A DNA stretch of 42,220 nucleotides from Cyanobacteria bacterium P01_H01_bin.35 (lineage in GTDB: Bacteria; Cyanobacteriota; Cyanobacteriia; Cyanobacteriales; Microcoleaceae), in NCBI GenBank assembly GCA_038747755.1, contig JBCDJM010000029.1, forward strand, positions 1-42,220. The letters are read 5' to 3'. The position numbers and the translations under genes were made by a program. This document shows positions 8,788 through 40,255 of this stretch, one piece after another (the stretch's first letter is position 1; the number at the start of each line of letters is the position of its first letter). Below the pieces are notes generated by a model that saw only the letters and a list, made by a program, of their open reading frames with translations, made no database searches and was not told where the DNA came from.

Positions 8788-8807
8788 ATTTTTTCCCTTT
8801 AATAAAC

Positions 8808-8886
8808 AGCTTCCCTCCGCTGGTATTAACCAGTCTCAGGTTCTAAGGGTATTTCTCAGCCTGAATATTTAGGCACCCCTAGCTTA
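8808..8886 (-). promoter_or_regulatory. TPP (THI-box) riboswitch in the thiC leader
   Basis: The minus strand reads gctaggggtgcctaaatattcaggCTGAGAaatACCCTTagAACCTGAgactggtTAATACCagcggAGGGAA. This matches the conserved CUGAGA / ACCCUU.GAACCUGA / UAAUACC.GCG.AGGGA core of the TPP aptamer. It ends ~24 nt before the thiC ATG. Confidence 0.9.
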
Positions 8887-9136
8887 ACTTTTAAGTATAG
8901 CATTTTTTCGGGATCGATCGGAATTAAGTCAAAATTCAAAAATTTAAAGTCAAAAGTTAACAAAGAAATTGATGATTTTAATGTTACAAATTGACGTGCG
9001 GAATGTGGGTTGGAAGTAAACACTTTTTTCTCTCCAGTTTTATTGGATGTGAACTTTGACTATTCCAACTTACTGCCTTTATCTGTGGGGCAGATTGAAA
9101 CTGTTTCTGTTTTTAAGTTTTGTTAAAATATCTTGA

Positions 9137-23077: not shown

Positions 23078-23308
23078 CTATTTATTTAGATAAGTATCAA
23101 TTGTTTTAACTGTCCGAAAATTCTCAATTGTCACATCTTCCAAAGGTACAGTAATCTCAAACTTTTCCTCAATGAAGGCAATAAGTCGCATAATACCCAT
23201 AGAATCAACCCAATCATTTCCTAGCAAATCATCCTCTGCTCCTACCTCAAACCGACTGTTGAGTAAATTTTCACTGATATATCTTTTAAGTATTTCTTGA
23301 GTTTCCAC
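23078..23308 (-). CDS. Stand-alone acyl/peptidyl carrier protein
   Basis: The phosphopantetheine site context is NDWVDSMGIMRLIAFIEEKF. I place the start at GTG 23308 (in frame, preceded by GGAGGA at 23313-23318), giving 76 aa. The longer ORF to 23416 runs into repeat family B. Confidence 0.75.
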   Translation of the reverse strand: METQEILKRYISENLLNSRFEVGAEDDLLGNDWVDSMGIMRLIAFIEEKFEITVPLEDVTIENFRTVKTIDTYLNK

Positions 23309-23321
23309 CGATCCTCCTGAT

Positions 23322-23477
23322 TGCTGAATGCTGATTACTGACTGCTTTTTTAACTTACCGAAAAATAAAGGTTTAAAGCCTCTCCTTTCAAGGAAAAAAA
23401 AATTCCTTTTAACCAATTATCTTCTTTTTAAGAAGAGGTAATTATTAATTATTAATTGTTAATTATTAATTATTGAA
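23322..23477 (-). repeat. Dispersed repeat family B, copy 2 (inverted relative to copy 1)
   Basis: The reverse complement of 23354-23477 matches 2077-2199 almost base for base. It overlaps the last codons and stop of the adenylating-enzyme gene. Confidence 0.8.
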
Positions 23478-25034
23478 AGCTTCTTTTTGTAAAGCTCGGC
23501 GGTCTATTTTTCCCGTTGTTGTTCTTGGTAATTGTTCCCTGATAGAAATTTTCAAGGGAACTCCATACTTGGGAAGATACTTCGCTGCGTAGCGAATTAA
23601 CTCATCTGCACTTACCTCCTTTTCCTCTTTTAAAGTCACAGCAGCTTCTATATGATTACCTTCATTATCGGGTACAGAAAAAGCTCCTGCTTCTTCTACC
23701 TGGGGATGGGACACAAGAACAGCCTCTATTTCATCAAGTTCTACCCGATACCCTCGTGTTTTAATTTGTCGGTCTTTGCGTCCGAGAAAACTGTAATTAC
23801 CATCTGGTTGTAATTGTACTAAATCTCCTGTTCTGAAAAACACTTCTTTGTGGTTTCCAAATACAGGACGAGAAAAAAAAGCACATTCGTTCAGATCGGG
23901 GCGTTGCCAATACCCTTGCATCATAGTCGGTGTACGAACTAGCAATTCTCCCACCTCTCCAGAAGGTACAGGTCGATCTTGCTCGTCCACTACCAATTCT
24001 TCCGCATTCTCCCAAATACAACCAATGGGAACTGACTGTTCCGGAATAGTTTCTAACTTAGGAACATGGTAATATGTACATTGATTAATCTCTGCCGGAC
24101 CATATACATTACAAAAACGTGCTTGGGGAAGTTGCTCCATTAACTCGTATAAATATTTTGGTGGAAAGGGTTCTCCTCCAAATAATACCCAACGTAAGGA
24201 AGTCAAGTCGCGAGTTGGCAGCAGACCGCGTTGGAGCAACTGGATCAGAGCAAACGGAACAGAATACCAAATGGTGAGCTTTTCTTTTTCAATGAGTTGG
24301 GAAAGACTCGCGGGTAATTTGGTATAAGCTTCCGGAATAATAACGGTTGTCGCTCCTGCCAAAGGACCAGAAAAATAGTCAAGGGTAGACATATCAAAGT
24401 GTAATGGCGAATGGTTTCCCAAGCGATCGCCATGATGAAGTCCATAGGTATGAGCAGACATTTTGGCATAGCTCAAACCACTATGGTGAGTGTGCATGAT
24501 ACCTTTTGGTTCTCCTGTAGACCCAGAAGTATACATAATATAAGCCAGGTCTTGCTCCAGTATTCTGATATTGGGAGGAGACTCTCCAGAAATTTCCCAT
24601 ACTGTTTCCCAGGCAAAAGTTCGCACAGATAATTCTGTTGAAGCGACTCCGATAATATATTCTAGCGGAGTGGGTTCAGCTAAAATTTCTGAGATGTATG
24701 AGAGTTTTTGAGGTTGGGTAATTAGACCTCGAATACCGCAATTTTGCAGAATAAATCTAATCCGGGAGGCAGGTGCTGTAGGGTCTAAGGGAACATAAGC
24801 TGCTCCTGCTTTCATAATCCCATAGATAGCAACTGCTGATTCAAGGCTTTTATTGAGATAAATCCCAATTCGGTCTCCTCGCTCTACTCCCTGAGTCCTC
24901 ACAAAATTAGCTAGACTGTTAGACTGACTTACAAGGTTGGCATAGGTCAAGCTTTTAGATTCAAACCGGAAGGCTTCCTGTTCGGGAAATTGTTCTGCTG
25001 ACCGATCTATGGCATGGGGAATAAGATAAATCAT
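23466..25034 (-). CDS. Stand-alone adenylate-forming enzyme (amino-acid adenylation / DltA-like)
   Basis: 522 aa. Motifs: YIMYTSGSTGEPKG (A3), NVYGPAE (A5), FFRTGDL (A7), GRKDRQIKTRGYRVELDEIE (A8), TTTGKIDRRAL (A10). There is no fused carrier domain; a carrier protein gene follows. Confidence 0.85.
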   Translation of the reverse strand: MIYLIPHAIDRSAEQFPEQEAFRFESKSLTYANLVSQSNSLANFVRTQGVERGDRIGIYLNKSLESAVAIYGIMKAGAAYVPLDPTAPASRIRFILQNCGIRGLITQPQKLSYISEILAEPTPLEYIIGVASTELSVRTFAWETVWEISGESPPNIRILEQDLAYIMYTSGSTGEPKGIMHTHHSGLSYAKMSAHTYGLHHGDRLGNHSPLHFDMSTLDYFSGPLAGATTVIIPEAYTKLPASLSQLIEKEKLTIWYSVPFALIQLLQRGLLPTRDLTSLRWVLFGGEPFPPKYLYELMEQLPQARFCNVYGPAEINQCTYYHVPKLETIPEQSVPIGCIWENAEELVVDEQDRPVPSGEVGELLVRTPTMMQGYWQRPDLNECAFFSRPVFGNHKEVFFRTGDLVQLQPDGNYSFLGRKDRQIKTRGYRVELDEIEAVLVSHPQVEEAGAFSVPDNEGNHIEAAVTLKEEKEVSADELIRYAAKYLPKYGVPLKISIREQLPRTTTGKIDRRALQKEAFNN

Positions 25035-25057
25035 ACTAAAAGTCTCAAGAGTTTGTT

Positions 25058-25167
25058 ATTAGACCTCTCCGGAAAAGAGGGAGTAGGGAGTAAGGAGTAG
25101 AGGGAAATAATTAATAATTTCTGCACAATAATTGATTTGATTTTTAATTATCGGAGATGTCTATTAG
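25058..25167 (-). repeat. Dispersed repeat family C, copy 1 (24 nt upstream of the adenylating-enzyme start)
   Basis: Its reverse complement ctaatagacatctccgataattaaaaatcaaatcaatt...ccctactccctcttttccggagaggtctaat matches 29535-29672. Confidence 0.8.
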
Positions 25168-25177
25168 TCGTAAATTT

Positions 25178-26326
25178 TTACAGTCCTAATAAACGAGAAA
25201 TTATATTGCGTTGAATATCGGAAGTACCTGCATAAATTATACCACCAATAGCATCTCGCAACTCGCGTTCAACACCAAAATCAGTCAGATAGCCGTTACC
25301 TCCATGGATACGGACTGAATCTAAACCTGAAGCGACAAAACATTCACTCAAATAGAGCTTCAACAAAGCCGCTTCTAACATCGCAGGTTTTCCTCTATCT
25401 TTTAGCCAAGCTACTTTATAAAGAAGTAACCTCGCTGTTTCCAGTCGCAATTTCATATCAGCAACTCGGTTCGAGACTGATTGAAATTTTCCGATAGGTT
25501 GGCCATACTGTTCTCTAGATTTAGCATAAGCAATTGCTTTTTCCAACTGTTGTTCCATTGCTCCCAGTTCGCTGGCAAGATTAAAACAGCGATCGTATTC
25601 CAGGGAGTTATGGGAGAAACTAAAGCCAGCTCCTTCAGGGCCTAGTCTATTTTCTTCTGGAACAAAACAGTTTTCAAAGAAAATTTCGCCAAAAGGAGCA
25701 GTACGCAAACCCATTTTTTCTTTAACAGCACTGGTAGAAAAACCAGGGGATGACCGCTCTACAAGAAAAGTAGTTATACCCCACTTACCTAAACTAGGAT
25801 CGAGTGTGGCAAAAACGATCGCTAGATTACAAATTGGCGCACAGGTGACAAACTTTTTTCGACCATTGAGAATGTAACCCCCTTCGCACTTTTGAGCTGT
25901 TGTCTTCAGACTGTAAACATCTGAGCCTGACTGAGGTTCAGATAGAGCATGAACTCCAATCCACTCACCCTTACATAGAGGAGGAAGGTAACGCTGTTTT
26001 TGAGCGTCTGTACCAAACTGCAATAGTAAAATCTGCACTGTCCACATTTGAGCATTGAGTGCTAATGTCAGTCCATTATCTTCACAACCGTAACCTAATC
26101 CCTCCATTGCCAGAACAGCAGTCATAATATCTAATGGGGGAGAGCCACTGTAGGCTTCAGGCATACACATTCCCTGAATGCCGAATTCAGCACACTTTCG
26201 CCAATTATCTTCAGAAAACTTACCCTGGCGATCGCGTTCAATTATATCACCATTCAAGTTTTCTTGGGCAAACTGAATTACCCGTTGCTTAAAAGCTAAT
26301 TGTTCGTCTGACCAAGAAAAGTCCAT
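25178..26326 (-). CDS. Acyl-CoA dehydrogenase family flavoprotein (probable acyl/aminoacyl-carrier-protein dehydrogenase)
   Basis: 382 aa with the ACAD fold pattern (LSEPQSGSD, YGQPIGKFQ, C-terminal IYAGTSDIQRNIISR). The position of the MCAD-type catalytic Glu (YEG) is Ala here. Confidence 0.8.
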   Translation of the reverse strand: MDFSWSDEQLAFKQRVIQFAQENLNGDIIERDRQGKFSEDNWRKCAEFGIQGMCMPEAYSGSPPLDIMTAVLAMEGLGYGCEDNGLTLALNAQMWTVQILLLQFGTDAQKQRYLPPLCKGEWIGVHALSEPQSGSDVYSLKTTAQKCEGGYILNGRKKFVTCAPICNLAIVFATLDPSLGKWGITTFLVERSSPGFSTSAVKEKMGLRTAPFGEIFFENCFVPEENRLGPEGAGFSFSHNSLEYDRCFNLASELGAMEQQLEKAIAYAKSREQYGQPIGKFQSVSNRVADMKLRLETARLLLYKVAWLKDRGKPAMLEAALLKLYLSECFVASGLDSVRIHGGNGYLTDFGVERELRDAIGGIIYAGTSDIQRNIISRLLGL

Positions 26327-26374
26327 AGGAAATTATAGATGAAGTTAGTTAAAAGCTTTTCTTTGATTTTTGCT

Positions 26375-27466
26375 TTATCGCGAAACTGGAAACAATTGAG
26401 TTTGCTCTCTTTTACTTTCCACTGAAATAGAAAAATCGTAAGGATTTCTAAAATCAGCAGAAATACTTTCGAGTTGTACTAAAGTTCCTACATCTAGCTC
26501 TTGAGCATAGTCTAGAAATATATTCATTGCTACCCGATCTTCTAATGCCCATCCAGTCGAATCAAAAACTGTTTGCCGATCTTGAATATCTCTATACTGC
26601 TCTTGTTTTTGTATCAATTGATATAGTTCAAGTTTAATATCTTCAGGATTTAGTTGCTGGCATTCTCCTTCCTTTAAGGCTTGAGTGCGAAAGTCTGGAC
26701 AAACAAAACTTTTCTGAAGGAGAGATTGAGGAAGTTCTGTTTTTCCTGGAAAGTCTGAACCTACGGCGTTTATATGTATCCAAGGTTTGAGGGAATTATC
26801 TTGAAAAACAGGACCTTCTCCAATTTTGACGGAGGTTGCAGTACAGAGAATATCAGCTAAAGTAACAAGTTTCTCTAATGGAGTCACTTTGACTTCTATA
26901 TTTTTCAGGTTGAGACAGGAAACCCTTGTTTCAAAGGAGTTACTGGCTGCTGAATCTATATCATAGATTAGAACCTGCTCGAAATCAAAAATCCGAGAAA
27001 GGGCGTGCAACTGACTAACTGCCTGCGCTCCACAACCTATAAGCCCGATAATTTTGCTATTGGGTATAGCCATCAATTGACTGGCTACGGCTGATGCAGC
27101 ACCTGTTCTGAGAGCAGTAATAAAAGTAGCATCCATCAGTCCTATCAAATGTCCTGAAGTTGTATCATAGGCTGATACAGTAGAAACAATTGTTGGGAGT
27201 TTACGAGTATTTGGGTTTGTAGGATGATAGCCAACTACTTTAATAACTACTCCCTCTTTTTGAGCTAGTGACGGCATCCACTCAATCAACCCTGTATGAG
27301 GATTTTCATAGTTAAAGCCATCACGAGGAGGAATGATAGTTTTGTTGGGATCGAATGTTTGAAATGTTTTGATCAGACGAGCTATCATTTCATCCATCAA
27401 CATATCTAAGCCAACTTTCTGTACAATTTTACGGATATCATTGACTGATAAAATTAAGGTTTCCAC
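26375..27466 (-). CDS. Ornithine cyclodeaminase / mu-crystallin family protein
   Basis: 363 aa. Features are the N-terminal LSVNDIRKIV, TALRTGAASAVAS, and the Rossmann motif GLIGCGAQAVSQLHAL typical of the OCD_Mu_crystall family. Confidence 0.8.
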   Translation of the reverse strand: METLILSVNDIRKIVQKVGLDMLMDEMIARLIKTFQTFDPNKTIIPPRDGFNYENPHTGLIEWMPSLAQKEGVVIKVVGYHPTNPNTRKLPTIVSTVSAYDTTSGHLIGLMDATFITALRTGAASAVASQLMAIPNSKIIGLIGCGAQAVSQLHALSRIFDFEQVLIYDIDSAASNSFETRVSCLNLKNIEVKVTPLEKLVTLADILCTATSVKIGEGPVFQDNSLKPWIHINAVGSDFPGKTELPQSLLQKSFVCPDFRTQALKEGECQQLNPEDIKLELYQLIQKQEQYRDIQDRQTVFDSTGWALEDRVAMNIFLDYAQELDVGTLVQLESISADFRNPYDFSISVESKREQTQLFPVSR

Positions 27467-27554
27467 TATTTTTCTCCATATTAACTTAGACTTGATAGTT
27501 TCTTATTTATTGCTGATTGCTGAACGCTAATAGCTGAATGCTTACTGATATTTT

Positions 27555-28880
27555 TCAAATAAATGGTAAAATTTGTTCAATAAAACCCCTAGCATTAAGA
27601 TTAATTTGAAAGGCACGTTCTACAAACCAATAAACAGCAACAATAAACAGAAAAACAGATCCTATTTTTAGTAAAAACTTTGCATATAATTTTTGTTGTC
27701 GCAGTAAATAAAGAATCGGAAAAATAACAGCAATAATCGCAATTTGCCCTAGCTCTACTCCTAAATTAAATCCAAATAAAGAGAGAAATGCACGTTCTTG
27801 AACAATACCTAATTCTGCTAATACATTCGCAAAACCAAATCCATGAAATAGTCCAAATACAAAGATTATTATCCAAATTCTTTTCCCAAAAATAGGATAA
27901 ATAATATCAACGGCAGCAACTGCAATTGAAAGGGCAATTATAGATTCAACTATGTGAGAGGGTATTTCCACAATTTTCAGCGTTGCCAAAGCTAATGTAA
28001 TACTATGGGCAACGGTAAAAGCAGTGGCAATTTTTATTACATGAAAAAAAGCAGGACGGAAATTTTTAACTGGTTGCCAACGTAAATCTTCTCTTTGCAA
28101 AACAGATGGCAAAATTAAAGCAACTAAGAATAGAATATGATCGATGCCTTCCCAAATATGAAGAACCCCAAGTTTGACTACAGCAATAAATCCTTTGAAG
28201 ACAGACACAGAGGATAAATCTAAAGTTTGTGGTTTGCTATTTTCAGTAAAAATTAAGGAAACCGAAGATTCATTAGCGAATGTACCAGCTTTCCAATTAT
28301 GCTCAATCACAACTAAGTTTTTATGTTGTGGTTTAATATCTAATAGTACCCTATAGTCAACATCAAGACTTTCAGGAACTTCTGACAAGTTATAAATTTG
28401 ATAATCAAAATCCAAAAATCTAGCAAATCCTGTTCTCCAAGATCTATATCCTGTATATTTTAAAACATATTCTTGTTGATTATTGCTAATTGTGAGATTT
28501 TTATCTATATAATCCTTAATTTTTTCGAGGTGAGGTTCTATTTCTTCCGATTTAGGCTTTCGGTTAGTTGGTAAATCTAAGTTTAAAGCTGTGTTGATAT
28601 CATCAACAGTCATTTCGACACGAGCTTCAATAGATTGGTCATAAATCTTAAAATAAAGATAACTTTGTTCGGGAGCATGAGCAATGGCGTTAGATATTGA
28701 TAAAAAGCAAAATGAAATTGCAATAGCAATATAGACAACTATAGAGCGCAGTGTCTTATTTTTAGTGATATTAGTCCAAATATTATAGTTTCTGAGACTA
28801 TTATTAATTGGTATAACTGGCAAGCAGAAGTTACTATTTTTTGCCTGTTTATGTTGTGAGAATAATTGCCTAAAGAACAT
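27555..28880 (-). CDS. HupE/UreJ-family membrane protein with N-terminal extracytoplasmic domain
   Basis: The C-terminal half carries HIWEGIDHILFLVALIL, FTVAHSITLALATL, GLFHGFGFA and GFNLGVELGQ (HupE/UreJ_2-type motifs). A signal/anchor helix lies near aa 45-65. The exact start is uncertain. Confidence 0.7.
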   Translation of the reverse strand: MFFRQLFSQHKQAKNSNFCLPVIPINNSLRNYNIWTNITKNKTLRSIVVYIAIAISFCFLSISNAIAHAPEQSYLYFKIYDQSIEARVEMTVDDINTALNLDLPTNRKPKSEEIEPHLEKIKDYIDKNLTISNNQQEYVLKYTGYRSWRTGFARFLDFDYQIYNLSEVPESLDVDYRVLLDIKPQHKNLVVIEHNWKAGTFANESSVSLIFTENSKPQTLDLSSVSVFKGFIAVVKLGVLHIWEGIDHILFLVALILPSVLQREDLRWQPVKNFRPAFFHVIKIATAFTVAHSITLALATLKIVEIPSHIVESIIALSIAVAAVDIIYPIFGKRIWIIIFVFGLFHGFGFANVLAELGIVQERAFLSLFGFNLGVELGQIAIIAVIFPILYLLRQQKLYAKFLLKIGSVFLFIVAVYWFVERAFQINLNARGFIEQILPFI

Positions 28881-29754: not shown

Positions 29755-32550
29755 ATGAAGTTAGAAAATGTTGCGGATATCTATCCCCTTTCTCATATTC
29801 AAGCAGGTATGTTATTCCATACCCTAGCTTCTCCAAGCTCAGGAGTTTACATAGATCAATATACCTGCAAGCTTCGAGGCGAACTTCAAATACAGGCTTT
29901 TAAATCAGCTTGGGAAAAAGTTATAGAACGTTATGACACCCTAAGAACTGCTTTTGTCTGGGAAGGTTTAGATGAGCCTTTACAAATTGTCCGTCAAAAA
30001 GTAGAACTATCATGGACATTCTCAGACTGGTGTAGCTTAACTTCAAAAGAGCAAGAAACTACATTAGCTGAGTTTTTAGACAAAGATCGGGCTTCGGGGT
30101 TTCAATTAGAAAAAGCCCCCTTAATGCGTATAAAAATAATTCGTCTCCAAGATGACACTTATCAACTAATCTGGACATTTCATCACCTACTCTGCGACGG
30201 TTGGTCAACTCGGATTATATTGAAAGAAGTATTTGCCTTGTATGCTTCATTCTGTCAAGGAAAAAATATTAGTCTTCCATCCCCTCGCCCCTATAAAAAC
30301 TATATTGCTTGGCTACAGCAACAGAATCTCGACAAGGCTAAAGTCTTTTGGCAAGAGATTCTCAAGGGATTTGCACAACCAACGGCACTGCCCATTGCTA
30401 ACTCACTTACATCTACTTCCAATTACTGCCAAAAGGAAATTTTATTAAATCCTGAACTCTCAGAATCTCTAAATTCTTGGGCAAAGCAACACCGACTTAC
30501 TCTAAATACCGTAATTAATGGTGCTTGGGGTTTGCTTCTGAGTAGATATAGTGGTGAGACAGATGTTATCTATGGAACTACCGTTTCTGGTCGCCCAACA
30601 ACTTTAGCTGGAGTCGAAGAAATAGTTGGGCTTTTTATCAATACTCTACCTGTAAGGGTGGAAATTTCTCCTGAAAAAGAACTTATCCCTTGGTTGCAAG
30701 AAATACAGTCTCAACTCCTGAATATTCGTACTTTTGAGTACACACCTTTAGTCAAAATTCAAGGATGGAGTGAAGTACCTCAAGGACGTTCTTTATTTGA
30801 AAGCCTAATTGTCTTGGAAAACTATCCAACACAAACTCAAATAGAAAATAGCAACTTAAAAATTGAAGATATCCATTATTTTGAACAAAGTAATTATCCC
30901 CTAGCCTTGCTGGTAGTTCCGAAAACATCGTTAGAATTAATCCTAATTTACGATGCTGCTCGCTTTGACTCTGGAACAATTACCAGGATTTTAGGTTCTC
31001 TAGAAACTATATTGCAAGGATTTATTGAAAATTCCCATAGCACTCTCGCCAGTTTACCTTTATTGGCTCAGGCAGAACAACATCAACTCCTTGTCGAGTG
31101 GAATAAATCTCAAACTGCTTATCGGCAAGATGTTTGTATCCACGATTTATTTCAGGAGCAAGTGGAAAAGAATCCCGATGCTATTGCTGTTGCTTTCGAG
31201 AGTCAATATCTGACTTACCGAGAACTCAATCAAAAGGCTAATTGTTTGGCCCGCCATTTACAGTCTCTCGGTATTGGGCCTGATGTTTGTGTGGGCATTT
31301 TGTTAGAGCGTTCTTTAGAAATGGTAGTAGGAATTCTGGGCATTCTGATGGCAGGTGGTGCTTATGTTCCTCTAGATCCAAACTATCCTCAAGAAAGATT
31401 GACTTATATTTTGCAAGATACCGAAGCTACTATACTTCTAACTCAGCAAAAGTTAGTCAATTTATTACCTAACAATTCTCTACCAACTATTTGCCTAGAT
31501 ACAGATTGGCAAAAGCTAGAAGAAAATGATACTTTAAAATCCTCACTAACCAATCTAGAGTCAAATGAGCATCTTGCTTATGTCATTTATACATCAGGTT
31601 CCACAGGTAAGCCTAAAGGAGTATTAGTTACTCATCGTAACCTTGTCCATTCCACAACAGCTCGAATAAAGTATTACAGCCAACCTGTCGATCGCTTTTT
31701 GTTACTCTCTTCTTTTGCTTTCGATAGCTCCGTTGCTGGAATTTTTTGGACTCTATGTCAGGGTGGCACTTTAGTTTTACCAAAACAAAAGTTGGAGCAA
31801 GATATACAGGAGTTAGCAAATCTAATTTCTGGCGAGCAAGTAACTCATACTTTATGCTTACCTTCTCTCTACAGTTTACTATTAACTTATGCCACCACTG
31901 TACAACTTCAATCTCTCAAAGTAGTTATTGTTGCAGGAGAAGCTAGTGGGCGCGCCCTGGCTCAACAGCACCATGAAAAACTCCCAAATACTTATCTATA
32001 TAACGAATATGGTCCAACTGAAGCTACTGTTTGGAGTAGTGTTTATCAAGTCCCAGTAAATCTAGAAAGTTCGACTATTCCTATTGGAAAACCCATTCCC
32101 AATACACAAATTTACTTGCTAAATTCTCGTCAACAGCTAGTTCCTATTGGCGCTCAAGGAGAAATCTTTATTGGAGGCGCGGGAGTAGTTCGGGGTTACT
32201 TAAATCAACCAGAAAAAACGACCGAGCAGTTTATTCCTCATCCATTTAGTCAGGTTAAAGGAGATCGCCTTTACCGAACTGGAGACCTTGCTCGTTATCT
32301 TCCTGATGGAAACATCGAATTCCTTGGGCGAGTAGATCGTCAAGTCAAAATTCGTGGCTATCGAATTGAACTAAGCGAAATTGAAGATGTTTTAAAACAG
32401 CATGAAATTGTTCAGGAGGTAGTAGTGGTAGCTCAGTCAATTCAACAATCTTCTGCCTCTGATAGTGTTGATAGTTTGATCGAAGAATTGCTGGCACTAA
32501 ATCCCGATCAAGCCAACGAATTGCTGGTATCTGTTGAGGAGGATAGCTAA
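29755..32550 (+). CDS. NRPS fragment: C domain + N-terminal part of an A domain (through A8), no A9/A10, no carrier domain
   Basis: C domain: IYPLSHIQAGMLFH, HHLLCDGWS. A domain: LAYVIYTSGSTGKPKG, NEYGPTE, YRTGDLARY, GRVDRQVKIRGYRIELSEIE, ...EVVVVAQ, then a 36-aa acidic tail and TAA. Confidence 0.9.
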   Translation: MKLENVADIYPLSHIQAGMLFHTLASPSSGVYIDQYTCKLRGELQIQAFKSAWEKVIERYDTLRTAFVWEGLDEPLQIVRQKVELSWTFSDWCSLTSKEQETTLAEFLDKDRASGFQLEKAPLMRIKIIRLQDDTYQLIWTFHHLLCDGWSTRIILKEVFALYASFCQGKNISLPSPRPYKNYIAWLQQQNLDKAKVFWQEILKGFAQPTALPIANSLTSTSNYCQKEILLNPELSESLNSWAKQHRLTLNTVINGAWGLLLSRYSGETDVIYGTTVSGRPTTLAGVEEIVGLFINTLPVRVEISPEKELIPWLQEIQSQLLNIRTFEYTPLVKIQGWSEVPQGRSLFESLIVLENYPTQTQIENSNLKIEDIHYFEQSNYPLALLVVPKTSLELILIYDAARFDSGTITRILGSLETILQGFIENSHSTLASLPLLAQAEQHQLLVEWNKSQTAYRQDVCIHDLFQEQVEKNPDAIAVAFESQYLTYRELNQKANCLARHLQSLGIGPDVCVGILLERSLEMVVGILGILMAGGAYVPLDPNYPQERLTYILQDTEATILLTQQKLVNLLPNNSLPTICLDTDWQKLEENDTLKSSLTNLESNEHLAYVIYTSGSTGKPKGVLVTHRNLVHSTTARIKYYSQPVDRFLLLSSFAFDSSVAGIFWTLCQGGTLVLPKQKLEQDIQELANLISGEQVTHTLCLPSLYSLLLTYATTVQLQSLKVVIVAGEASGRALAQQHHEKLPNTYLYNEYGPTEATVWSSVYQVPVNLESSTIPIGKPIPNTQIYLLNSRQQLVPIGAQGEIFIGGAGVVRGYLNQPEKTTEQFIPHPFSQVKGDRLYRTGDLARYLPDGNIEFLGRVDRQVKIRGYRIELSEIEDVLKQHEIVQEVVVVAQSIQQSSASDSVDSLIEELLALNPDQANELLVSVEEDS

Positions 32551-32552
32551 AA

Positions 32553-33890
32553 ATGGCTCATATTGTTTGTATTACTGGTGGACTTACGGGTATATTTAAC
32601 GCGAGTATATCATTGGTCAAACAGTTGGAAAAAGCTGGTCATCGCATCACCTACGCTAGTCCAAAAGACTGGTCTGATTTAACTAATCAATATAATATTC
32701 CCTTTGTTCAACTCGATCCTTGGATATTCGAGTGGAAAGAACAACCTCTCAGTCGGTGGCAACAATTTCGTCAACTAGGAGAAAGAAGAAACCAAGCCAT
32801 AAAAGCATTGGGTGTAGAGAATTTTGCAGAAACGATGAAGGAATTAAACCCCGACTTGCTCCTCATCGATATGGAAATGCACCCACATATTATGACGGCG
32901 GTGGTTAACGATCTACCAGTGGCACTTTTATGCCAGTTTTTGTCTATTTGGAAACGAGGCAATTTACCCCCAATTCACACTGATATTATTCCAGGTGAAG
33001 GGTGGCGTGGAAAATGGTTCGGCATCGAATGGACTTGGCTACGTTACGGTTGGACAAAATGGCGGGAATATCAGCATGAGCGATGGCAAAAGATGGGAGT
33101 CGATCGCATTTCAGTTTTGCGTTGCTATGCTAAAAAAATAGGCTACCCTTTTCGAGAAAGATTTGGATTTAAACAGTCAGTTGTACCTTATCCCCATAAG
33201 GGACTTCCTATTCTCTGTTTCAATGGTTTAGAGTTAGATTTTCACCACGATCCACCTTCCTCAATGTACTACATAGGGCCGATGGTATGGGAAAATCGTC
33301 AAGAATCAAAGATTGAACAAAACACTTATCAAACCTTAGAGCGAATCTTTGAAAAACGTCGTCTGACTGGAAATTCATTAATTTATTGTGGTTGTAGTAG
33401 CTTTAATAGGATTAATACAAAATTTTTGCGACAAATTATAGATGCAGTGTCAAGTTGTCCACAATGGGATTTAGTAGTAGGTCTTGGCAGTCAGTTAGAT
33501 TTTGATAAATTAGGCTCTCTTCCTTCTAACGTATATGTTTTGAGTTGGGCACCTCAAACACAAATACTCAAGCACGCTGACTGCGCTATCATTAACGCAG
33601 GTATTAATACCATCAATGAGTGTATTTACTTTGGCGTCCCTATGCTAGTCTATTCCCTTAAGCGTTACGATCAAAATGGAAATGCAGCACGAATAATTTA
33701 TCATCAGCTTGGCATTGTGGGGGATATGAAGCAAGATAATGTACCTCAGATTCGTAATTATATTCAAACTCTGTTAACAGATAAGTCTTACCAAATACAA
33801 GTGAATAGTATACGCGCTCGCTTTCGTCGCTATTCTGATGAGAATGTAGCTGCTAAAGTTGTTGAAGCTTTGTTAAATGTACAGAATTAG
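32553..33890 (+). CDS. GT1-family (MGT/UDP-glycosyltransferase-like) glycosyltransferase
   Basis: 445 aa. The C-terminal nucleotide-sugar motif is WAPQTQILKHADCAIINAGINTINECIYFGVPMLVYSLKRYDQNGNA (W.PQ..L.H...... N...E....G.P....P...DQ..NA pattern). The ATG lies 2 nt after the NRPS stop and has a GAGGAGGA Shine-Dalgarno. Confidence 0.8.
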   Translation: MAHIVCITGGLTGIFNASISLVKQLEKAGHRITYASPKDWSDLTNQYNIPFVQLDPWIFEWKEQPLSRWQQFRQLGERRNQAIKALGVENFAETMKELNPDLLLIDMEMHPHIMTAVVNDLPVALLCQFLSIWKRGNLPPIHTDIIPGEGWRGKWFGIEWTWLRYGWTKWREYQHERWQKMGVDRISVLRCYAKKIGYPFRERFGFKQSVVPYPHKGLPILCFNGLELDFHHDPPSSMYYIGPMVWENRQESKIEQNTYQTLERIFEKRRLTGNSLIYCGCSSFNRINTKFLRQIIDAVSSCPQWDLVVGLGSQLDFDKLGSLPSNVYVLSWAPQTQILKHADCAIINAGINTINECIYFGVPMLVYSLKRYDQNGNAARIIYHQLGIVGDMKQDNVPQIRNYIQTLLTDKSYQIQVNSIRARFRRYSDENVAAKVVEALLNVQN

Positions 33891-33917
33891 AAAAAAGTAA
33901 TTGATTAACTTTTTATT

Positions 33918-34673
33918 ATGAATAATCAAACAACAGAAAAAGAAATTATTCTAGAAGAATTCAATAAACTTACTAAGTTTGTGAAACCTCCGATGACAAG
34001 TTTGGAGAATATCAAGAGTATTTTTAAACTATGGCTAAGTTTTAATTTCACCAGATTAATGCAAAGAATAGGATTTAATCGCAAAAAAATAAAAACATTT
34101 TCCGAAAAATCGCAGATAATTCTTAATATTGGTTGTGCAGGAGATGAAAAAGAAGAGTATATTAATGCTGACGTATTTCGTGTTTTCGGTGATTGGGGAT
34201 TCGCTAGTATTAGGAGATTTCTTCTTGGCAATAGGGATAAAACTAGGTACGATTTATTTCTTAATTTAACTGAACTAGACCAAGATTTATTAGGAATTGC
34301 TGATTTTATTATTCTTTCTCATGTGTTAGAACATATTCATCCTCAATATGCTTTAGTAGCTTTGAAAAATTGTTTTGATTATCTAAAAATAGGAGGATAT
34401 ATTCGTCTTGCTGTTCCTTTTTTAGATGCTTATAATACTTCTAATTTACCCGAATGTCAAAAACTAACTTATCCAATATTAGCAAAAAATAGACTTATAT
34501 ATGGATGGGGGCATTGTTTTATGTATGATGCAGTTTTGCTAAAATTTTTATTAGAAGAAGCAGGTTTTTCTGAAGTAGAGCAAGTTAATTTCGGCTCTGG
34601 TATTTTAGGAGAAACTGATGTAGCAGAATACCGACAAGAATCTATATATCTCAAGGGAAAAAAATTAAATTAG
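33918..34673 (+). CDS. Class I SAM-dependent methyltransferase (Methyltransf_11-like)
   Basis: Motif I-like ILNIGCAGD is present, followed by FIILSHVLEHIHPQYALVALKNCFDYLKIGGYIRLAVP (post-II/III region). Length is 251 aa. Confidence 0.65.
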   Translation: MNNQTTEKEIILEEFNKLTKFVKPPMTSLENIKSIFKLWLSFNFTRLMQRIGFNRKKIKTFSEKSQIILNIGCAGDEKEEYINADVFRVFGDWGFASIRRFLLGNRDKTRYDLFLNLTELDQDLLGIADFIILSHVLEHIHPQYALVALKNCFDYLKIGGYIRLAVPFLDAYNTSNLPECQKLTYPILAKNRLIYGWGHCFMYDAVLLKFLLEEAGFSEVEQVNFGSGILGETDVAEYRQESIYLKGKKLN

Positions 34674-34688
34674 TTTATTACATTTTTT

Positions 34689-35627
34689 ATGAACAAATCT
34701 TATGAACAACAAAATCCCATTTTTATTGTAGGAATGCCGAGATCTGGCACGACTTTAATACGTACTTTGTTATCGGCACATCCTCATATTACTATTTCAC
34801 CAGAAACTCACTTTATCAAAAATTGGTTCAAACCATATCGACATTTAGATTTGAATCAACCAGAGCAATGGGAAAATTTTTGGCAAGCTCTCAGCTATAG
34901 CGAGATATTTAAATCTTTGGGATTGGATACCGGAAAAACCCAGGCAAATCTTTTAGCCCTGGATAATATTAACCATAAAAATGTATTTACTGTGCTTCTC
35001 CAATCTTATGCTAGGAAAATGCAAAAACAAAGATGGGGAGAAAAAACACCAGATCATTACCAATATTTAGATATTTTATTCAGATGGTATCCTGATGCAA
35101 AAGTCATTTGGATGTTGCGAGATCCTCGTGCAGTAAGTGCTTCTTTAATAACTAAAAAATGGGCTAGCTCTTATATAGATGTTCATGCTCGTAAATGGTT
35201 TTATAGTATGGAAAAATTTACACAAATATGGTCTAAAGATAGGCGTATTCTGTTGGTTAAATATGAATCATTGGTACGAAAGCCTGAACTGGAAATGTCT
35301 CGTATTTGTAATTTTTTACAAGAAGATTATAGCTCTCTAATAATTTCAGAAAATCAAAAATCTCCCAGCATCTTGGGATTAAAAAGTATTATTGATGAAT
35401 CTGTTCAAGAAGTTTTAAATCCAGTTCATCAAACAGCATTAGAAAAGTGGAAGACAAATTTATCTGCTTATCAAATTGGTGTTGTAGAACATTTTACTAG
35501 AAATGAAATGTTAGAACAGGGATATAAACCTATTACTAATAAATTAAGTAGGTTACAATCTCTGCAACTTTTTCTAATTTTGAATTTACGGAAACTCAAA
35601 AATAACATGAAAAATATGAGGATTTAA
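34689..35627 (+). CDS. Sulfotransferase (PAPS-dependent)
   Basis: The 5'-PSB loop is IFIVGMPRSGTTLIRTLL and the 3'-PB region is VIWMLRDPRAVSASL. Length is 312 aa. Confidence 0.8.
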   Translation: MNKSYEQQNPIFIVGMPRSGTTLIRTLLSAHPHITISPETHFIKNWFKPYRHLDLNQPEQWENFWQALSYSEIFKSLGLDTGKTQANLLALDNINHKNVFTVLLQSYARKMQKQRWGEKTPDHYQYLDILFRWYPDAKVIWMLRDPRAVSASLITKKWASSYIDVHARKWFYSMEKFTQIWSKDRRILLVKYESLVRKPELEMSRICNFLQEDYSSLIISENQKSPSILGLKSIIDESVQEVLNPVHQTALEKWKTNLSAYQIGVVEHFTRNEMLEQGYKPITNKLSRLQSLQLFLILNLRKLKNNMKNMRI

Positions 35628-35722
35628 ACTGAGGGTATTTTCGCGATAATAAACTTATATTTTTCTACTTTTATTAGCCTTAAATAATACCTTAAAATAG
35701 CTCGAAAAATTAACATAGTTGT

Positions 35723-37729
35723 ATGATGAATCAAAAAACAGAATTATATCAAAGAGTTGCAGAACTCTCCCCTAGTCAGCGAGCAAAACTATTAAGGAAA
35801 ATTCAGCAATTCAAATCAGATAAATTTCCTCAAGATCGTCAAAGATTAGTAGCTTATATTGTCCCCCAATCTTCTGCTAATAATCTAGAATCTTCTGTAT
35901 TACGAGACTATCTTAAAGTTAAACTACCCAACTATATGATTCCGGCAGGAATTATGTTCCTAGAAGAATTGCCTCGTACTGCTAATGGGAAAATTGACAT
36001 TAAAGCACTACCTGAATTGCAATTAGCAAGCATCAACGCCGATCGCGCAAGCGGAACGGAGTTCTATCGCTCAAGTTTGCCGCAAACTTCAACAGAAAAG
36101 ACGCTGGCTGAAATTTGGAGTCAAGTTTTAGGAATTGACACAATAGGTATTAATGATAATTTCTTTGAGCTAGGAGGAGATTCTATCCTGAGTATTCAGA
36201 TTACGTCTAAAGCACGGGAGGCTGGACTAAGGTTATCTCCCAACCAACTTTTTGAAAAACCTACTATTGCTGAATTAGCTAATGTTGTTAATATTGCCCC
36301 TGAAGCGATCGCGACTCAAAAACCTGTTACCGGAGCAGTGCCACTTACTCCCATTCAGCACTGGTTTTTTGAGCAGGAGATGATTGCCCCACACCACTGG
36401 CATCAAGCAATGTTACTAGAAATGCCTGTTGAGGTAAGCGCGTCTAAGATTCAAGAAGCGATCGCCACTTTATGGACTCACCATGATGCTTTAAGGTTAA
36501 GTTACAACTTTGATTCAACTGGTTGGCAGCAAATCAATAAAAATGAGTCAGAGCGACCATCCCTAGTTCAAATAGACATCTCTGGTTTGAGTGAAGCGGA
36601 ACAAACGGAAGCAGTTGCTAAATACGGTACAGATATTCACAGTGGTATGAATTTTGCTGCTGGTAAACTAATGGAAGTTGCTCATTTTGCCCGTGGTGAA
36701 AATCTATCTAGTTGGCTTCTAATTAGTCTCCATCATTTAGTTGTAGATACAGTTTCTTGGCAAATTTTACATAATGATTTAGAAAGGTTGCTCTTTACAC
36801 AAGTCGGGCAGTTACCAGCAAAAACAACCTCTTTCAAAACTTGGGCAGAGATACTTACTGCTCAAGCACCACAACGAGAGTCTGAAGCAGATTTTTGGTT
36901 GAAGCAAGTTGAGTCGGTATTTATCCGCCTACCGCGAGATTTCTCAGATACTCCAAAATTGACTGAAGCTACTGCACAAACCGTAAATGTGCAACTTGAT
37001 GTTGATGATACTCAAGCTTTACTACGATCTGTGCCAGCTACTTACAATACACAAATTAATGATGTACTACTGACAGCTCTAGCAAAAACATTACTTCAAT
37101 GGAGCGGGGTAAAGGCAGGAAATATTCGGCTCGATCTAGAAGTACACGGTCGCGAGCAAATTGTACCTGAAATAGATTTATCAAAAACAATAGGTTGGTT
37201 TACGATGGTTTATCCATTGAAGTTAGAGTTAAGAGAAAGAGATGAAAATGACGCGCTAGTCAAATCTGTGAAAGAACAAATTCGGGAAATTCCAGACCGT
37301 GGTATTGGTTACGGAATTTTACGTTACTTGGGGGATGAAACTACTCGTCGCCGACTAACTCAGGCACAAAGCTCTGAAATATTATTCAATTATTTAGGTC
37401 AGTCAGATCGTACTACTGGCAAAGAAAGGATCGAGATGATTCCAGATATTTCTGTTGGTCAACTCAGAGATTTGCGTAATAGCCGTAGCTACTTGCTAGA
37501 GATAAATGCTTGGGTTGCTAATGGAAAATTGCAACTTAATTGGATATACGATCACCAAGTATATCAATTAGAGACTATTAGCACAATAGCAAAAAATTAT
37601 ATTAGTACGCTCAAATCTATCATTCTAAAGTGCATAGAATCTGATAACATTAGCTTTACCCCCTCTGACTTTCCTGATGCGGAGCTAAGTCAGACAGAAT
37701 TAGATGAATTTCTTGATAATATTACATAA
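35723..37729 (+). CDS. NRPS fragment: C-terminal part of an A domain (A9-A10) - T - E
   Basis: A 40-aa head is followed by RLVAYIVPQ, LPNYMIPAGIMFLEELP (A9) and NGKIDIKALP (A10). T domain: FFELGGDSILSIQI. E domain: LTPIQHWFFE, HHLVVDTVSW, EVHGRE. The COM-donor-like tail is FTPSDFPDAELSQTELDEFL. Confidence 0.9.
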   Translation: MMNQKTELYQRVAELSPSQRAKLLRKIQQFKSDKFPQDRQRLVAYIVPQSSANNLESSVLRDYLKVKLPNYMIPAGIMFLEELPRTANGKIDIKALPELQLASINADRASGTEFYRSSLPQTSTEKTLAEIWSQVLGIDTIGINDNFFELGGDSILSIQITSKAREAGLRLSPNQLFEKPTIAELANVVNIAPEAIATQKPVTGAVPLTPIQHWFFEQEMIAPHHWHQAMLLEMPVEVSASKIQEAIATLWTHHDALRLSYNFDSTGWQQINKNESERPSLVQIDISGLSEAEQTEAVAKYGTDIHSGMNFAAGKLMEVAHFARGENLSSWLLISLHHLVVDTVSWQILHNDLERLLFTQVGQLPAKTTSFKTWAEILTAQAPQRESEADFWLKQVESVFIRLPRDFSDTPKLTEATAQTVNVQLDVDDTQALLRSVPATYNTQINDVLLTALAKTLLQWSGVKAGNIRLDLEVHGREQIVPEIDLSKTIGWFTMVYPLKLELRERDENDALVKSVKEQIREIPDRGIGYGILRYLGDETTRRRLTQAQSSEILFNYLGQSDRTTGKERIEMIPDISVGQLRDLRNSRSYLLEINAWVANGKLQLNWIYDHQVYQLETISTIAKNYISTLKSIILKCIESDNISFTPSDFPDAELSQTELDEFLDNIT

Positions 37730-37747: not shown

Positions 37748-40255
37748 ATGGAAAAACAAAATATAGAAGCTATATACCCTCTCACCTCTTTGCAACAAGC
37801 ATTTTTATGGCATAGTTTGCAAACTTCTTCCCAAGCAGGGTTACTACATATAAGTTGCGAGCTACACGGAGAAGTAAACCAAGTTATATTAAAGGAAGCT
37901 TGGGAGTTTGTCTTCAGTCTTCATCCAACATTACGCACGTCAGTTCATTGGGAGTCAGTCAAACAACCTCTACAAGTTGTTGGTAAGCAGGTGAAACTGC
38001 CTTGGGTTACACTCGACTGGCAAGGAAAAGAAGATCGAGATTCAGTGTTAGCTGACTTTCTGATTGAAGACCGCAATGAAGGATTCGACCTTACCCAAGC
38101 TCCAATTAGTCGTATAGCTCTAATTCAACTGACCGATCTAGACTATAAATTAATCTGGAGTTGTCACCATCTGATGTTAGATGGTTGGTCAGGAGCAGTA
38201 GCTCTCAATCAAGTATTTGATAGCTATGAAATGTTGCTTCAGGGAGAGTCTCCATCAATAGCAAGACCCCAAACTTATCAAAATTATATCCGTTGGTTAA
38301 AGCAACAAGATGAATCTGCTGCTAGTGACTTCTGGCAAAAAATGTTAGATGGGTTTACCACTCCTACCCCTCTACCAATTTCTCAACCAAGAGAGAAAAA
38401 TTATTCTCAAACAGAAAGTTTATCCATCGCTATTTCAGAAGAAACCACTACTGAAATAGGTAGTTTCTTGCGTTCCCATAGACTAACATTAAACACATTA
38501 ATACAGAGTATATGGGGTTTGTTACTATATGCCTACAGTGGAAAAACAGATGTTCTATTTGGGGCAACAGTATCAGGGCGTCAAGGTTACTTGGCAGGAG
38601 TTGAAACCATTGTTGGTTTGCTGAATAATGTATTACCAATACGACTACAGATTTCTCCAGAAGAAAATATACTTTCTTGGCTAGAAAATTTACAAACTCA
38701 GCAAGCAAAAGCTAGTAAATTTGCATATGCTTCATTAGTTCAGATTCAAACTTGGAGTCAATTATCGAAACCTTTATTTGATAGTCTATTGGTAATTGAA
38801 AATTATCCAATGAAAATAGCTGAATCATGCAAAAGTTTACAAGTAGATAATGTTGAATCAGGTATTATTAGCACTTATGATTTAACCATAATTGTCATAG
38901 CTAGAAATACCTTAACAGTGAAATTATGTTATAAAAATAAGCATTTTGAACCTCAAATCATACAAACTTTACTTGAGCAGTTTGAACAAATTTTAAATAA
39001 TATTATCCAAAACCCATTACAGGCGATCGCCGAAATTGTACCCTTGACTGACTCGGTAATTAGTCAAAATCAGTCTCCGAAAACCATATCCCATACAAAT
39101 TCTTCCCTTAAGCTTAATAGAGAAGAACTAGAAGGCAGTTTTTTTAGTCCACAAAATCCTATGGAACTTAAACTCACTCAAATATGGGAATCTGTTTTGG
39201 GAGTTAGTCCGCTCAATGTTGAAGCAAGTTTCTTTGACTTAGGTGGAAATTCGCTCATGGCAGTACAATTATTTAATCAAATGCAGCAGCAACTTAACTG
39301 TACATTGCCCCTAGCAAGTTTGTTTCAAGCACCTAATGTCCGGAAGTTTGCTCGACTACTTAGTCAGGATCGACCCGTTTCACAATGGTCAAGTCTTGTA
39401 CCAATTCAGTCAAATGGCTCTAAATTACCATTTTTCTTTCATGGAGGTTCAGCAGATGCACTAACATGGGCTAGGTTTTCTCATTTTTTAGGTTCAGACC
39501 AGCCTTTTTATGCTCTACAACGTCCCGAACTCAATGGTGGAGAAATTTCTCAGAATACAGCTGAATCTCTAGCTGAAGCTTGTGTTAAAGAAATACGCAT
39601 GGTACAACCACAGGGACCTTACCTGATCGGAGGACACTGCTTTGGTGGCGCAGTTGCTTTTGAGATCGCCCAGCAACTCCAAGCTCAAGGGGAAGATATT
39701 GCTAGCATTATTTTGATTGACGCTTATTGCCCAAATTCTGTATCTATAAATGCTATTAGTGAATTGCAAACAAAACTTCAACTCGGAGTATTTTGGTTAA
39801 GGAAAAACTATTATTATCATGGCGACTGGAATAAGGTAAAACTTCTACCTCAGAAAGTATGGCAGAAATTAGGAAAAAAGAAAAAACATCACCCAAAAAC
39901 TATAAATACTACAGATACGGATGTCGTTTCTGAAATAGCCAAAAATACTTCTAAACTTGCCAAAACTACTAAACCAAAAATGTCATACGAATATCTATAT
40001 GCTCGTGCTCAACAAGCTAATGAGATTGCCGCAAATAACTATTTACCTCAACCCTATTCAGGAAAAATTAAATTGTTTCGAGCGGAAGTTCAAATGTTAG
40101 ACTGGCAATTTGGTTTCCCACTTGGTTGGCAGAAGGTTAGTAAAGAAGAAATTGAAGTGACAAATATCCCTGGTTTTTTCGGTAACTTATTTAATCAAAA
40201 ATCTGGATTATTGCTCGCCGAACAAGTAAAAAATTATTTGTTGAACCTTTCATAA
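37748..40255 (+). CDS. NRPS termination module without A domain: C - T - TE
   Basis: C domain: IYPLTSLQQAFLWH, HHLMLDGWS. A ~40-aa linker follows. T domain: FFDLGGNSLMAVQL. TE domain: PFFFHGGSADA..., with nucleophile elbow LIGGHCFGGAVA (Cys631, TGC 39638-39640). No A-domain core motifs are present. Confidence 0.9.
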   Translation: MEKQNIEAIYPLTSLQQAFLWHSLQTSSQAGLLHISCELHGEVNQVILKEAWEFVFSLHPTLRTSVHWESVKQPLQVVGKQVKLPWVTLDWQGKEDRDSVLADFLIEDRNEGFDLTQAPISRIALIQLTDLDYKLIWSCHHLMLDGWSGAVALNQVFDSYEMLLQGESPSIARPQTYQNYIRWLKQQDESAASDFWQKMLDGFTTPTPLPISQPREKNYSQTESLSIAISEETTTEIGSFLRSHRLTLNTLIQSIWGLLLYAYSGKTDVLFGATVSGRQGYLAGVETIVGLLNNVLPIRLQISPEENILSWLENLQTQQAKASKFAYASLVQIQTWSQLSKPLFDSLLVIENYPMKIAESCKSLQVDNVESGIISTYDLTIIVIARNTLTVKLCYKNKHFEPQIIQTLLEQFEQILNNIIQNPLQAIAEIVPLTDSVISQNQSPKTISHTNSSLKLNREELEGSFFSPQNPMELKLTQIWESVLGVSPLNVEASFFDLGGNSLMAVQLFNQMQQQLNCTLPLASLFQAPNVRKFARLLSQDRPVSQWSSLVPIQSNGSKLPFFFHGGSADALTWARFSHFLGSDQPFYALQRPELNGGEISQNTAESLAEACVKEIRMVQPQGPYLIGGHCFGGAVAFEIAQQLQAQGEDIASIILIDAYCPNSVSINAISELQTKLQLGVFWLRKNYYYHGDWNKVKLLPQKVWQKLGKKKKHHPKTINTTDTDVVSEIAKNTSKLAKTTKPKMSYEYLYARAQQANEIAANNYLPQPYSGKIKLFRAEVQMLDWQFGFPLGWQKVSKEEIEVTNIPGFFGNLFNQKSGLLLAEQVKNYLLNLS

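Follow-up and report, generated by a model that had tools for sequence, protein, structure and literature searches.

A nonribosomal peptide synthetase adenylation domain naturally split between two proteins in a cyanobacterial gene cluster, with probable reassembly in trans

The window analyzed here is the whole 42,220-nt stretch of contig JBCDJM010000029.1 from Cyanobacteria bacterium P01_H01_bin.35, and the locus examined lies on its + strand at 29.7–40.3 kb. In this locus, one adenylation (A) domain of a nonribosomal peptide synthetase (NRPS) is divided between two proteins, NRPS-a and NRPS-b, and three other genes are located between them. NRPS-a ends in an acidic tail after motif A8, and NRPS-b begins with a basic head and then resumes the A domain ahead of A9. 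We consider it probable that this is a naturally split but functional A domain whose halves are joined in trans, and that the tail and head are the most likely clamp between them. This reading is supported because the break is conserved, both halves are under purifying selection, the substrate pocket is kept, the tail and head carry motifs specific to split proteins, and the comparable Crz1/Crz2 pair is active only when mixed. A preliminary description made from the sequence had already favored reassembly in trans; the comparative evidence supported it, and we infer the docking by the tail and head. No publication was found on this gene cluster or its product.

Pfam assigned a condensation (C) domain (Condensation, aa 7–446) and an AMP-binding domain (aa 466–816) to NRPS-a, and both AMP-binding_C and PP-binding were absent from its 931 aa. 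NRPS-b matched AMP-binding_C at aa 37–90, covering profile positions 24–76 of 76, followed by PP-binding and then Condensation. The final domain of NRPS-b was identified as an epimerization (E) domain because it scored 148.9 bits against TIGR01720, above the cutoff of 74.2. On full-length models, the two proteins abut exactly: NRPS-a matched positions 10–438 and NRPS-b positions 440–500 of the 505-position DltA model PRK04813, and on the EntF model PRK10252 the matches were 5–897 and 900–1047, respectively. Together they make up an A domain without a missing or duplicated part, and all of the A-domain core motifs and the A10 Lys are kept in the two halves. The preliminary description had read these ORFs (open reading frames) as complementary halves, the first without A9, A10 and a carrier domain and the second with a 40-aa head followed by the rest of the A domain, the thiolation (T) domain and the E domain. 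Coordinates, sequence, Pfam, TIGR01720 and the coverage of the DltA and EntF models all agreed with this, and only the tail length had to be corrected from 36 to 37 aa (895–931).

The cut was placed by eye, by comparing the two halves with an unsplit relative, with the A domain of the 1880-aa NRPS in the window that is interrupted by a PP-loop insert, and with a canonical N-methyltransferase-interrupted A domain (L006). Unsplit A domains read ...RIELxEIE..HPxVxEAVVVxREDxxGxKRLVAYVV....LRxFLxxKLPxYMVP...NGKxDRxALP. The A-domain sequence stops at EVVVVAQ in NRPS-a and restarts at RLVAYIVPQ in NRPS-b, so the cut replaces a short β-hairpin loop (REDxxGxK) in the small sub-domain. The break lies between a8 and a9, with a1–a10 otherwise intact. 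That is where it had been placed before, but it does not coincide with the canonical N-methyltransferase (M) insertion site, which follows the RLVAYVV strand; the window break precedes this strand and is therefore one strand upstream. The same hairpin loop also holds the PP-loop insert of the 1880-aa NRPS, which is flanked by ..CVVDVS and RLVAYYV, and the alignment bore out the earlier statement that the two positions are homologous. Five unsplit C-A-T-E relatives (P0154, P0155, P0160, P0172, and P0196; ~52% identical) have an enlarged basic hairpin loop of 15–35 aa at the split site (e.g., ..ARRLQEIRPANQTKQLVAFIV) and carry neither the tail nor the head motif. They may be re-fused or pre-split forms.

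The family census covered cluster representatives and about 20 inspected genome contexts. The search with NRPS-b returned ~60 clusters of 640–700 aa with full coverage and identities from 92% down to 42%; their sources include Dapis, Crocosphaera, Leptothoe, Adonisia, Leptolyngbya PCC 7375 and Heron Island J, Xenococcaceae, and Nostoc. The search with NRPS-a returned ~40 clusters of 910–1000 aa, in which the stop falls 30–60 aa past A8, and the unsplit C-A-T-E relatives of NRPS-a showed at most 59% identity. Among the best 120 matches of each search, 63 clusters bore the head and 38 bore the tail. The preliminary description had asked whether orthologous clusters conserve the split, and they do: the same break was found in >15 independent genomes, at identities of 92% to 36% and in different phyla, with cyanobacteria and a Rhodothermales metagenome-assembled genome (MAG) among the carriers. 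Both halves were present in every inspected genome context, including this MAG and the isolate genome of Leptolyngbya PCC 7375, and further loci with the same break were found in Crocosphaera, Dapis, LEGE 11479, LEGE 11480, and Nostoc-like contigs. A separate Logan assembly contained an 11-kb contig with an identical layout. In a Xenococcaceae MAG (L025, 7147..12073), a methyltransferase of family PF27704 and the second half (head, A sub-domain, T, E) follow a class I tRNA-synthetase-like gene (tRNA-synt_1c, 483 aa). The C-A core-tail partner (P0128) is apparently on another contig, and therefore the halves may not always share one operon.

The dN/dS ratios were computed against the Dapis locus and two Crocosphaera loci. 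They were 0–0.09 for the N-terminal part of the A sub-domain, 0.15–0.27 for its C-terminal part, 0.13–0.32 for the other domains, and 0.18–0.37 for the tail. Thus both sub-domain halves are under purifying selection, which speaks against decaying pseudogenes. The Stachelhaus-type pocket code, taken by hand from motif anchors, is DSALIAEVWK and is conserved from the window to loci at ~40–50% identity. Because this code is retained, the module is not regarded as disabled. These comparisons argue that the split is neither an artefact nor a result of decay.

The tails of the split first halves follow roughly the pattern [DE]S[LV][DE]SLVxxLxxLxPxxAExLLxx[VI]EE, and the heads of the second halves follow xELYQR[VI]xxLSPxQRxxLxxxL, with invariant Q, R, S, R, and L. 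A hidden Markov model (HMM) of the tail matched all 38 short C-A core proteins, whereas only one of 76 contiguous controls was matched. The head HMM matched 65 of the 120 proteins in the second-half (Asub'-T-E) set, with every match in the N-terminal 70 aa, and none of the 120 controls. The tail profile also matched 36 of 96 distant methyltransferase-terminated proteins, immediately N-terminal to the methyltransferase. The tails are always acidic, with a mean net charge of −6.05 (n = 38), and the heads are mostly basic, with a mean of +2.6 (n = 63). A helix-Pro-helix hairpin was predicted for each. The earlier suggestion that the tail and head share a helical-looking motif was partly upheld: the helices were predicted, and hhalign aligned the two in register. 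The match was weak, however (E = 0.0024, probability 12%), and does not establish a common origin of the two as duplicates of one element.

AlphaFold2 (AF2) folded the concatenated halves into a complete A domain, with a predicted local distance difference test score (pLDDT) of 87.1 and a predicted template modeling score (pTM) of 0.85. The junction strands were confident on both sides (strand 436–445 from NRPS-a, pLDDT 76–96; strand 521–529 from NRPS-b, pLDDT 93). In a single-sequence mini-construct of tail plus head, AF2 gave four helices with pLDDT 74–84 and pTM 0.51. As in docking families, the tail and head are short complementary elements at the termini of consecutive assembly-line proteins. 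Conservation, charge, and predicted helices make a docking role of the two elements a well-motivated proposal.

Several observations weigh against such a role. The four helices of the tail and head had a low pLDDT (41–65) when the whole A domain was modeled with AF2. Profile searches of the PDB returned no significant match to either element, the best being 6TDD (E = 1.9) and 4MYY (E = 3.8) for the head; single-sequence searches of solved structures with the tail and head gave nothing significant, and all Foldseek matches in the PDB had E > 1. Neither the profile search nor Foldseek thus revealed similarity in sequence or fold to a characterized docking-domain family. In addition, the head is under weaker constraint (dN/dS 0.37–0.77). 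The low pLDDT, the lack of a significant match to known docking domains, and the dN/dS of the head would all suit a second explanation, which we regard as rather unlikely. It holds that the split A domain is functional, that the tail and head are leftover linkers of a once-embedded methyltransferase, and that only β-strand complementation and the sub-domain's hydrophobic core drive the association of the halves. The assignment of only aa 1–65 of Crz2 to its A domain points the same way, as a long head may be dispensable for trans activity. Against this explanation, both motifs are kept across phyla with invariant residues, are specific to split proteins, and carry consistently opposite charges, and the tail persists even where a methyltransferase is fused behind it.

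The two halves are separated by 3172 nt containing three intact ORFs. Pfam agreed with their earlier assignment as a GT1 glycosyltransferase (GT; UDPGT/EryCIII_C), an S-adenosylmethionine (SAM) methyltransferase (MT; Methyltransf_23, hereafter MT23), and a sulfotransferase (Sulfotransfer_3). The DNA at the first junction was also as described: the GT ATG (at 32553) follows the NRPS-a TAA (32548–32550) after a 2-nt spacer, and the GT Shine-Dalgarno sequence GAGGAGGA (32536–32543) lies inside the final NRPS-a codons. Stop and start codons also overlap or abut in relatives. The content of the gap varies in the family. Crocosphaera has the same GT, MT23, and Sulfotransfer_3 genes as the window. 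A GT and a Stf0-type sulfotransferase are found in L033 and in Dapis (L007), whose NRPS-b is 92% identical and whose locus is missing the MT23 gene. The gap holds MT23 and GT genes in PCC 7375, L012, L020, and LEGE 11480, and a 569-aa membrane protein, MT23, and GT in LEGE 11479. A single guanidinoacetate-MT-like methyltransferase (PF27704, 262–263 aa), often with overlapping stop and start codons, occupies it in L019, L027, L028, L029, and L030. L006 and L026 have no free gene in the gap; there the tail is followed by a fused PF27704 methyltransferase, and NRPS-b comes directly next. GT orthologues were found in the same slot in L002, L004, L007, L011, L032, and L033, and the window MT is only distantly related to that of PCC 7375 (26% over 108 aa).

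Because the gap holds zero to three genes of differing kinds while the break is fixed, the three genes are not the cause of the split. The preliminary description had the A domain split by these genes; they do lie between the halves, but the causality was overstated. The gene contents of the slot indicate that the split is older than the three cargo genes and independent of them. The GC contents at third codon positions (GC3) are 0.17 for the MT and 0.23 for the sulfotransferase, compared with 0.28 for the NRPS halves and 0.33 for the GT, and the low values of the MT and sulfotransferase fit a later arrival. Insertion by a mobile element was rejected: there were no direct or inverted repeats >22 nt flanking the cargo genes and no transposase among them. 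The possibility that the window MT is a relic of an embedded PF27704 methyltransferase was also rejected, as the two show no similarity.

An exhaustive search for the PF27704 methyltransferase gave 573 cluster representatives at E ≤ 1e-10, of which the best 150 were examined. They included 96 long NRPS proteins, and in 95 of these the methyltransferase ends ≤20 aa from the C-terminus. Such methyltransferase-terminated proteins, in which the guanidinoacetate-MT-like methyltransferase is fused after the tail, are the largest branch of the family. This indicated that the polypeptide break before the head is a deep, family-wide feature. When a fully cis ancestor was sought among the 150 representatives, only the ambiguous P0459 turned up. 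This 635-aa metagenomic protein was the sole one seen with the tail, PF27704 methyltransferase, head, C-terminal part of the A sub-domain, T domain, and thioesterase (TE) in one chain. Over its last ~20 residues, the methyltransferase of this protein departs from the family consensus, and an internal Met that opens the head motif follows directly. A frameshift is therefore possible, and P0459 represents such an artefact or, alternatively, a rare re-fusion.

The variable slot also bears on the alternative raised in the preliminary description, namely that a tailoring cassette captured the loop and disabled the module. The A domain would then be dead, and the T domain of NRPS-b would be loaded in trans by another A domain, e.g., the 522-aa stand-alone enzyme (23466..25034). 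The cluster does contain a stand-alone A domain and a terminal module that has none, so that trans loading probably occurs somewhere in the pathway, and the GC3 of the MT and sulfotransferase, below that of their neighbors, fits their later acquisition. Nevertheless, the comparative evidence led us to reject this alternative as very improbable. The split exists with zero to three intervening genes of different families and hence predates the cassette, both halves are under strong purifying selection, the pocket code and the A10 Lys are kept, and no repeats flank the cargo. The stand-alone A domain, moreover, travels with a peptidyl carrier protein (PCP), an acyl-CoA dehydrogenase, and an ornithine cyclodeaminase, and looks like part of a separate proline-type starter unit.

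There is a negligible chance that the break is explained by an error in assembly or sequencing, a pseudogene, an intein or trans-splicing, an intron, or read-through: nothing specific favors this beyond the single chain of the distant P0459 (tail, methyltransferase, head, A sub-domain, T) with its aberrant methyltransferase end, whereas the second assembly is identical, the break recurs in >15 independent genomes (one of them from an isolate), the stop falls at a conserved position, and the reading frames of NRPS-a and the GT differ. An in-frame stop lies three codons 5′ of the head ATG, and therefore a longer NRPS-b is excluded. A split intein was rejected, since the tail (37 aa) and head (40 aa) are far from intein size (an N-intein has ~100 aa and starts with Cys or Ser) and the head ends in ..QDRQ followed by Arg, not in Asn followed by Cys, Ser, or Thr. 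An intron was rejected as no Rfam intron or other RNA family was found in the region, and the second assembly, the >15 orthologous loci, and the dN/dS ratios ruled out an assembly error or a pseudogene.

For a split A domain reconstituted in trans, we propose the following arrangement. NRPS-a contributes the C domain, the A core with the hinge, and one third of the small A sub-domain, up to and including the first hairpin strand; NRPS-b contributes the remaining two thirds with the partner strand, A9, and the catalytic A10 Lys, followed by T and E. The strands EVVVVAQ and RLVAYIV would pair across the protein–protein interface and thereby complete the sub-domain sheet. The tail and head would lie at the tip of the hairpin, most likely packed as a small helical bundle that clamps both proteins and holds through the ~140-degree rotation of the sub-domain between adenylation and thiolation. 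As A10 and T are both on NRPS-b, the normal A10-to-T linker geometry would be kept. We regard the gap between the halves as an old permissive slot for tailoring genes, occupied in this lineage by the GT, MT, and sulfotransferase; its most widespread occupant is the guanidinoacetate-MT-like methyltransferase, either fused behind the tail or free-standing. A further, tentative idea is that the tail and head represent a docking element of a new, intra-domain class and that the junction also recruits the slot-encoded tailoring enzymes (PF27704 MT, GT, MT23, and sulfotransferases) to the T-bound substrate. If this is true, slot and interface evolved together into a plug-in site at which tailoring takes place on-line.

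The features of the locus are listed in Table 1. The six ORFs are packed closely on the + strand, with intergenic gaps of 2, 27, 15, 95, and 18 nt, and no terminator-like sites were found within these gaps. On the basis of this spacing, the six genes are probably co-transcribed, and the operon would be read as one transcript.

Table 1. Genes and sub-features of the split-NRPS locus in the window.
Feature	Position	Strand	Length and content
NRPS-a	29755..32550	+	931 aa: C, A core (A1–A8), N-terminal part of A sub-domain, acidic tail, stop
A8 motif GRVDRQVKIRGYRIELSEIE + helix + strand EVVVVAQ	32326..32436	+	NRPS-a aa 858–894; N-terminal part of A sub-domain, hinge-joined to core
Acidic tail SIQQSSASDSVDSLIEELLALNPDQANELLVSVEEDS + TAA	32437..32550	+	37 aa (NRPS-a aa 895–931); predicted helix-Pro-helix; proposed C-terminal docking element
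GT1 glycosyltransferase	32553..33890	+	445 aa; cargo gene 1; UDPGT/EryCIII_C; macrolide-type GT, TIGR01426 E = 6.8e-32
Class I SAM methyltransferase	33918..34673	+	251 aa; cargo gene 2; Methyltransf_23
Sulfotransferase	34689..35627	+	312 aa; cargo gene 3; Sulfotransfer_3
NRPS-b	35723..37729	+	668 aa: head, rest of A sub-domain, T, E
Basic head MMNQKTELYQRVAELSPSQRAKLLRKIQQFKSDKFPQDRQ	35723..35842	+	40 aa of NRPS-b; predicted helix-(S)P-helix; proposed N-terminal docking element
C-terminal part of A sub-domain	35843..36013	+	strand RLVAYIVPQ, helix, A9 (LPNYMIP), A10 (NGKIDIKALP, catalytic Lys)
T + E of NRPS-b	36014..37729	+	T domain aa 127–188; E domain aa 204–655
C-T-TE protein	37748..40255	+	835 aa; terminal module without A domain; TE motif GHCFGG

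The C-T-TE module is found downstream of NRPS-b in all orthologous loci, with C-A-T-TE instead in L029. Since this terminal module has no A domain, some A domain must load it in trans. Its TE nucleophile motif GHCFGG has Cys in place of Ser and is conserved in the cyanobacterial orthologues L002, L004, L007, and L020. On the minus strand (23078..28880), the window carries the stand-alone A domain (522 aa), a small PCP, the acyl-CoA dehydrogenase, the ornithine cyclodeaminase, and a HupE/UreJ-type Ni/Co permease with DUF6702, and similar sets were found in L025, L030, and L031. In L030 and L031, the same NRPS set adjoins a TonB-dependent receptor. The accessory genes and the receptor context suggest a proline-derived starter unit and a metallophore-like product. 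Elsewhere on the minus strand, a TnpB/Cas12f-like OrfB_IS605 protein of 372 aa (15628..16746; HTH_OrfB, OrfB_IS605, TNB) adjoins the stop of the 1880-aa NRPS, and a thiamine pyrophosphate (TPP) riboswitch (8795..8890; RF00059, 68.9 bits, E = 1.2e-11) lies upstream of a 486-aa ORF (7327..8787).

The locus is one member of a large family that spans more than one phylum. Throughout this family, a single hairpin loop of the A sub-domain is the cut site, and conserved tail and head motifs with opposite charges flank the cut. For NRPS engineering, the family offers a naturally validated split site inside an A domain, possibly with a natural connector, and thus a natural model for cutting and re-joining. 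It also outlines an evolutionary route in which an embedded tailoring domain becomes a free gene and an exchange slot for tailoring genes then arises between the domain halves. For annotation, an A domain labeled 'truncated' and a 'condensation domain-containing protein' that includes an orphan AMP-binding_C fragment can turn out to be the two halves of a single active domain.

Interrupted A domains are the broader class with which the locus can be compared. In TioS (A4aM4A4b), KtzH, and TioN, a tailoring function lies between a8 and a9 within a single polypeptide (Labby 2015; Lundy 2020, PMC8341866). As in the window, the two flanks of the interruption together complete the sub-domain. In those proteins, however, the auxiliary domain is embedded in cis, whereas the window has a conserved stop and start and its auxiliary enzymes are separate proteins. 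A keyword search of the 2020 interrupted-A catalogue (PMC8341866) and of a 2024 A-domain review found no mention of split forms. The 1880-aa NRPS of the window (16875..22517, minus strand), which belongs to the same co-conserved gene cluster as the split NRPS, uses the same hairpin loop, but its insert is in cis and the borders carry no tail or head motif. This ~345-aa insert (aa ~905–1255) resembles QueC/ThiI PP-loop ATPases, starts with CxxC...CxxC, and contains SGGKDS; amidation, nitrile or thio-modification are conceivable chemistries for it. It is also found in the orthologous NRPSs of L029, L032, and P0413, and the same keyword search of the 2020 catalogue did not find it.

Docking domains of NRPSs and polyketide synthases (PKSs), e.g., the class 2 cyanobacterial PKS pairs (CurG/CurH, PDB 4MYY), are likewise short helical elements at protein termini with complementary charge. 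Known docking domains link complete domains or modules, whereas the tail and head would link two pieces of one domain, and we do not claim membership of any docking family for them.

The closest known system is the corallorazine synthetase pair Crz1/Crz2 of Corallococcus coralloides (RSC Chem Biol 2024, PMC11342130). With Crz1 alone, its A2 domain showed no activity, whereas a 1:1 mixture of Crz1.2 and Crz2 was almost quantitatively active; the authors regarded this split A domain as unique and, to their knowledge, as the first experimental report (PMC11342130). As in the window, the A domain is broken between A8 and A9, with A1–A8 on one polypeptide and A9–A10 at the N-terminus of the next, T-bearing one. 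The first Crz half carries a fused type I N-methyltransferase and the two Crz genes lie side by side, whereas the window has a 37-aa tail without a methyltransferase and three free genes between the halves. The Crz-like order of A core, methyltransferase, and stop does occur among relatives of the window, in L006, L026, and the 95 of 96 long methyltransferase-terminated representatives. The authors aligned the Crz A domain with A domains interrupted by a type I M domain, and they assigned no more than aa 1–65 of Crz2 to it (PMC11342130). Judged by this published description and not by sequence, this points to a Crz cut at the canonical insertion site, with the window cut one β-strand earlier. 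Moreover, the window family has hundreds of members with conserved helical motifs at both ends, whereas Crz was called unique by its authors. A split active A domain has thus already been published, and the window locus differs from it in where the cut lies, in having a dedicated tail and head, in the free genes that separate its halves, and in belonging to a large family whose cargo is exchangeable.

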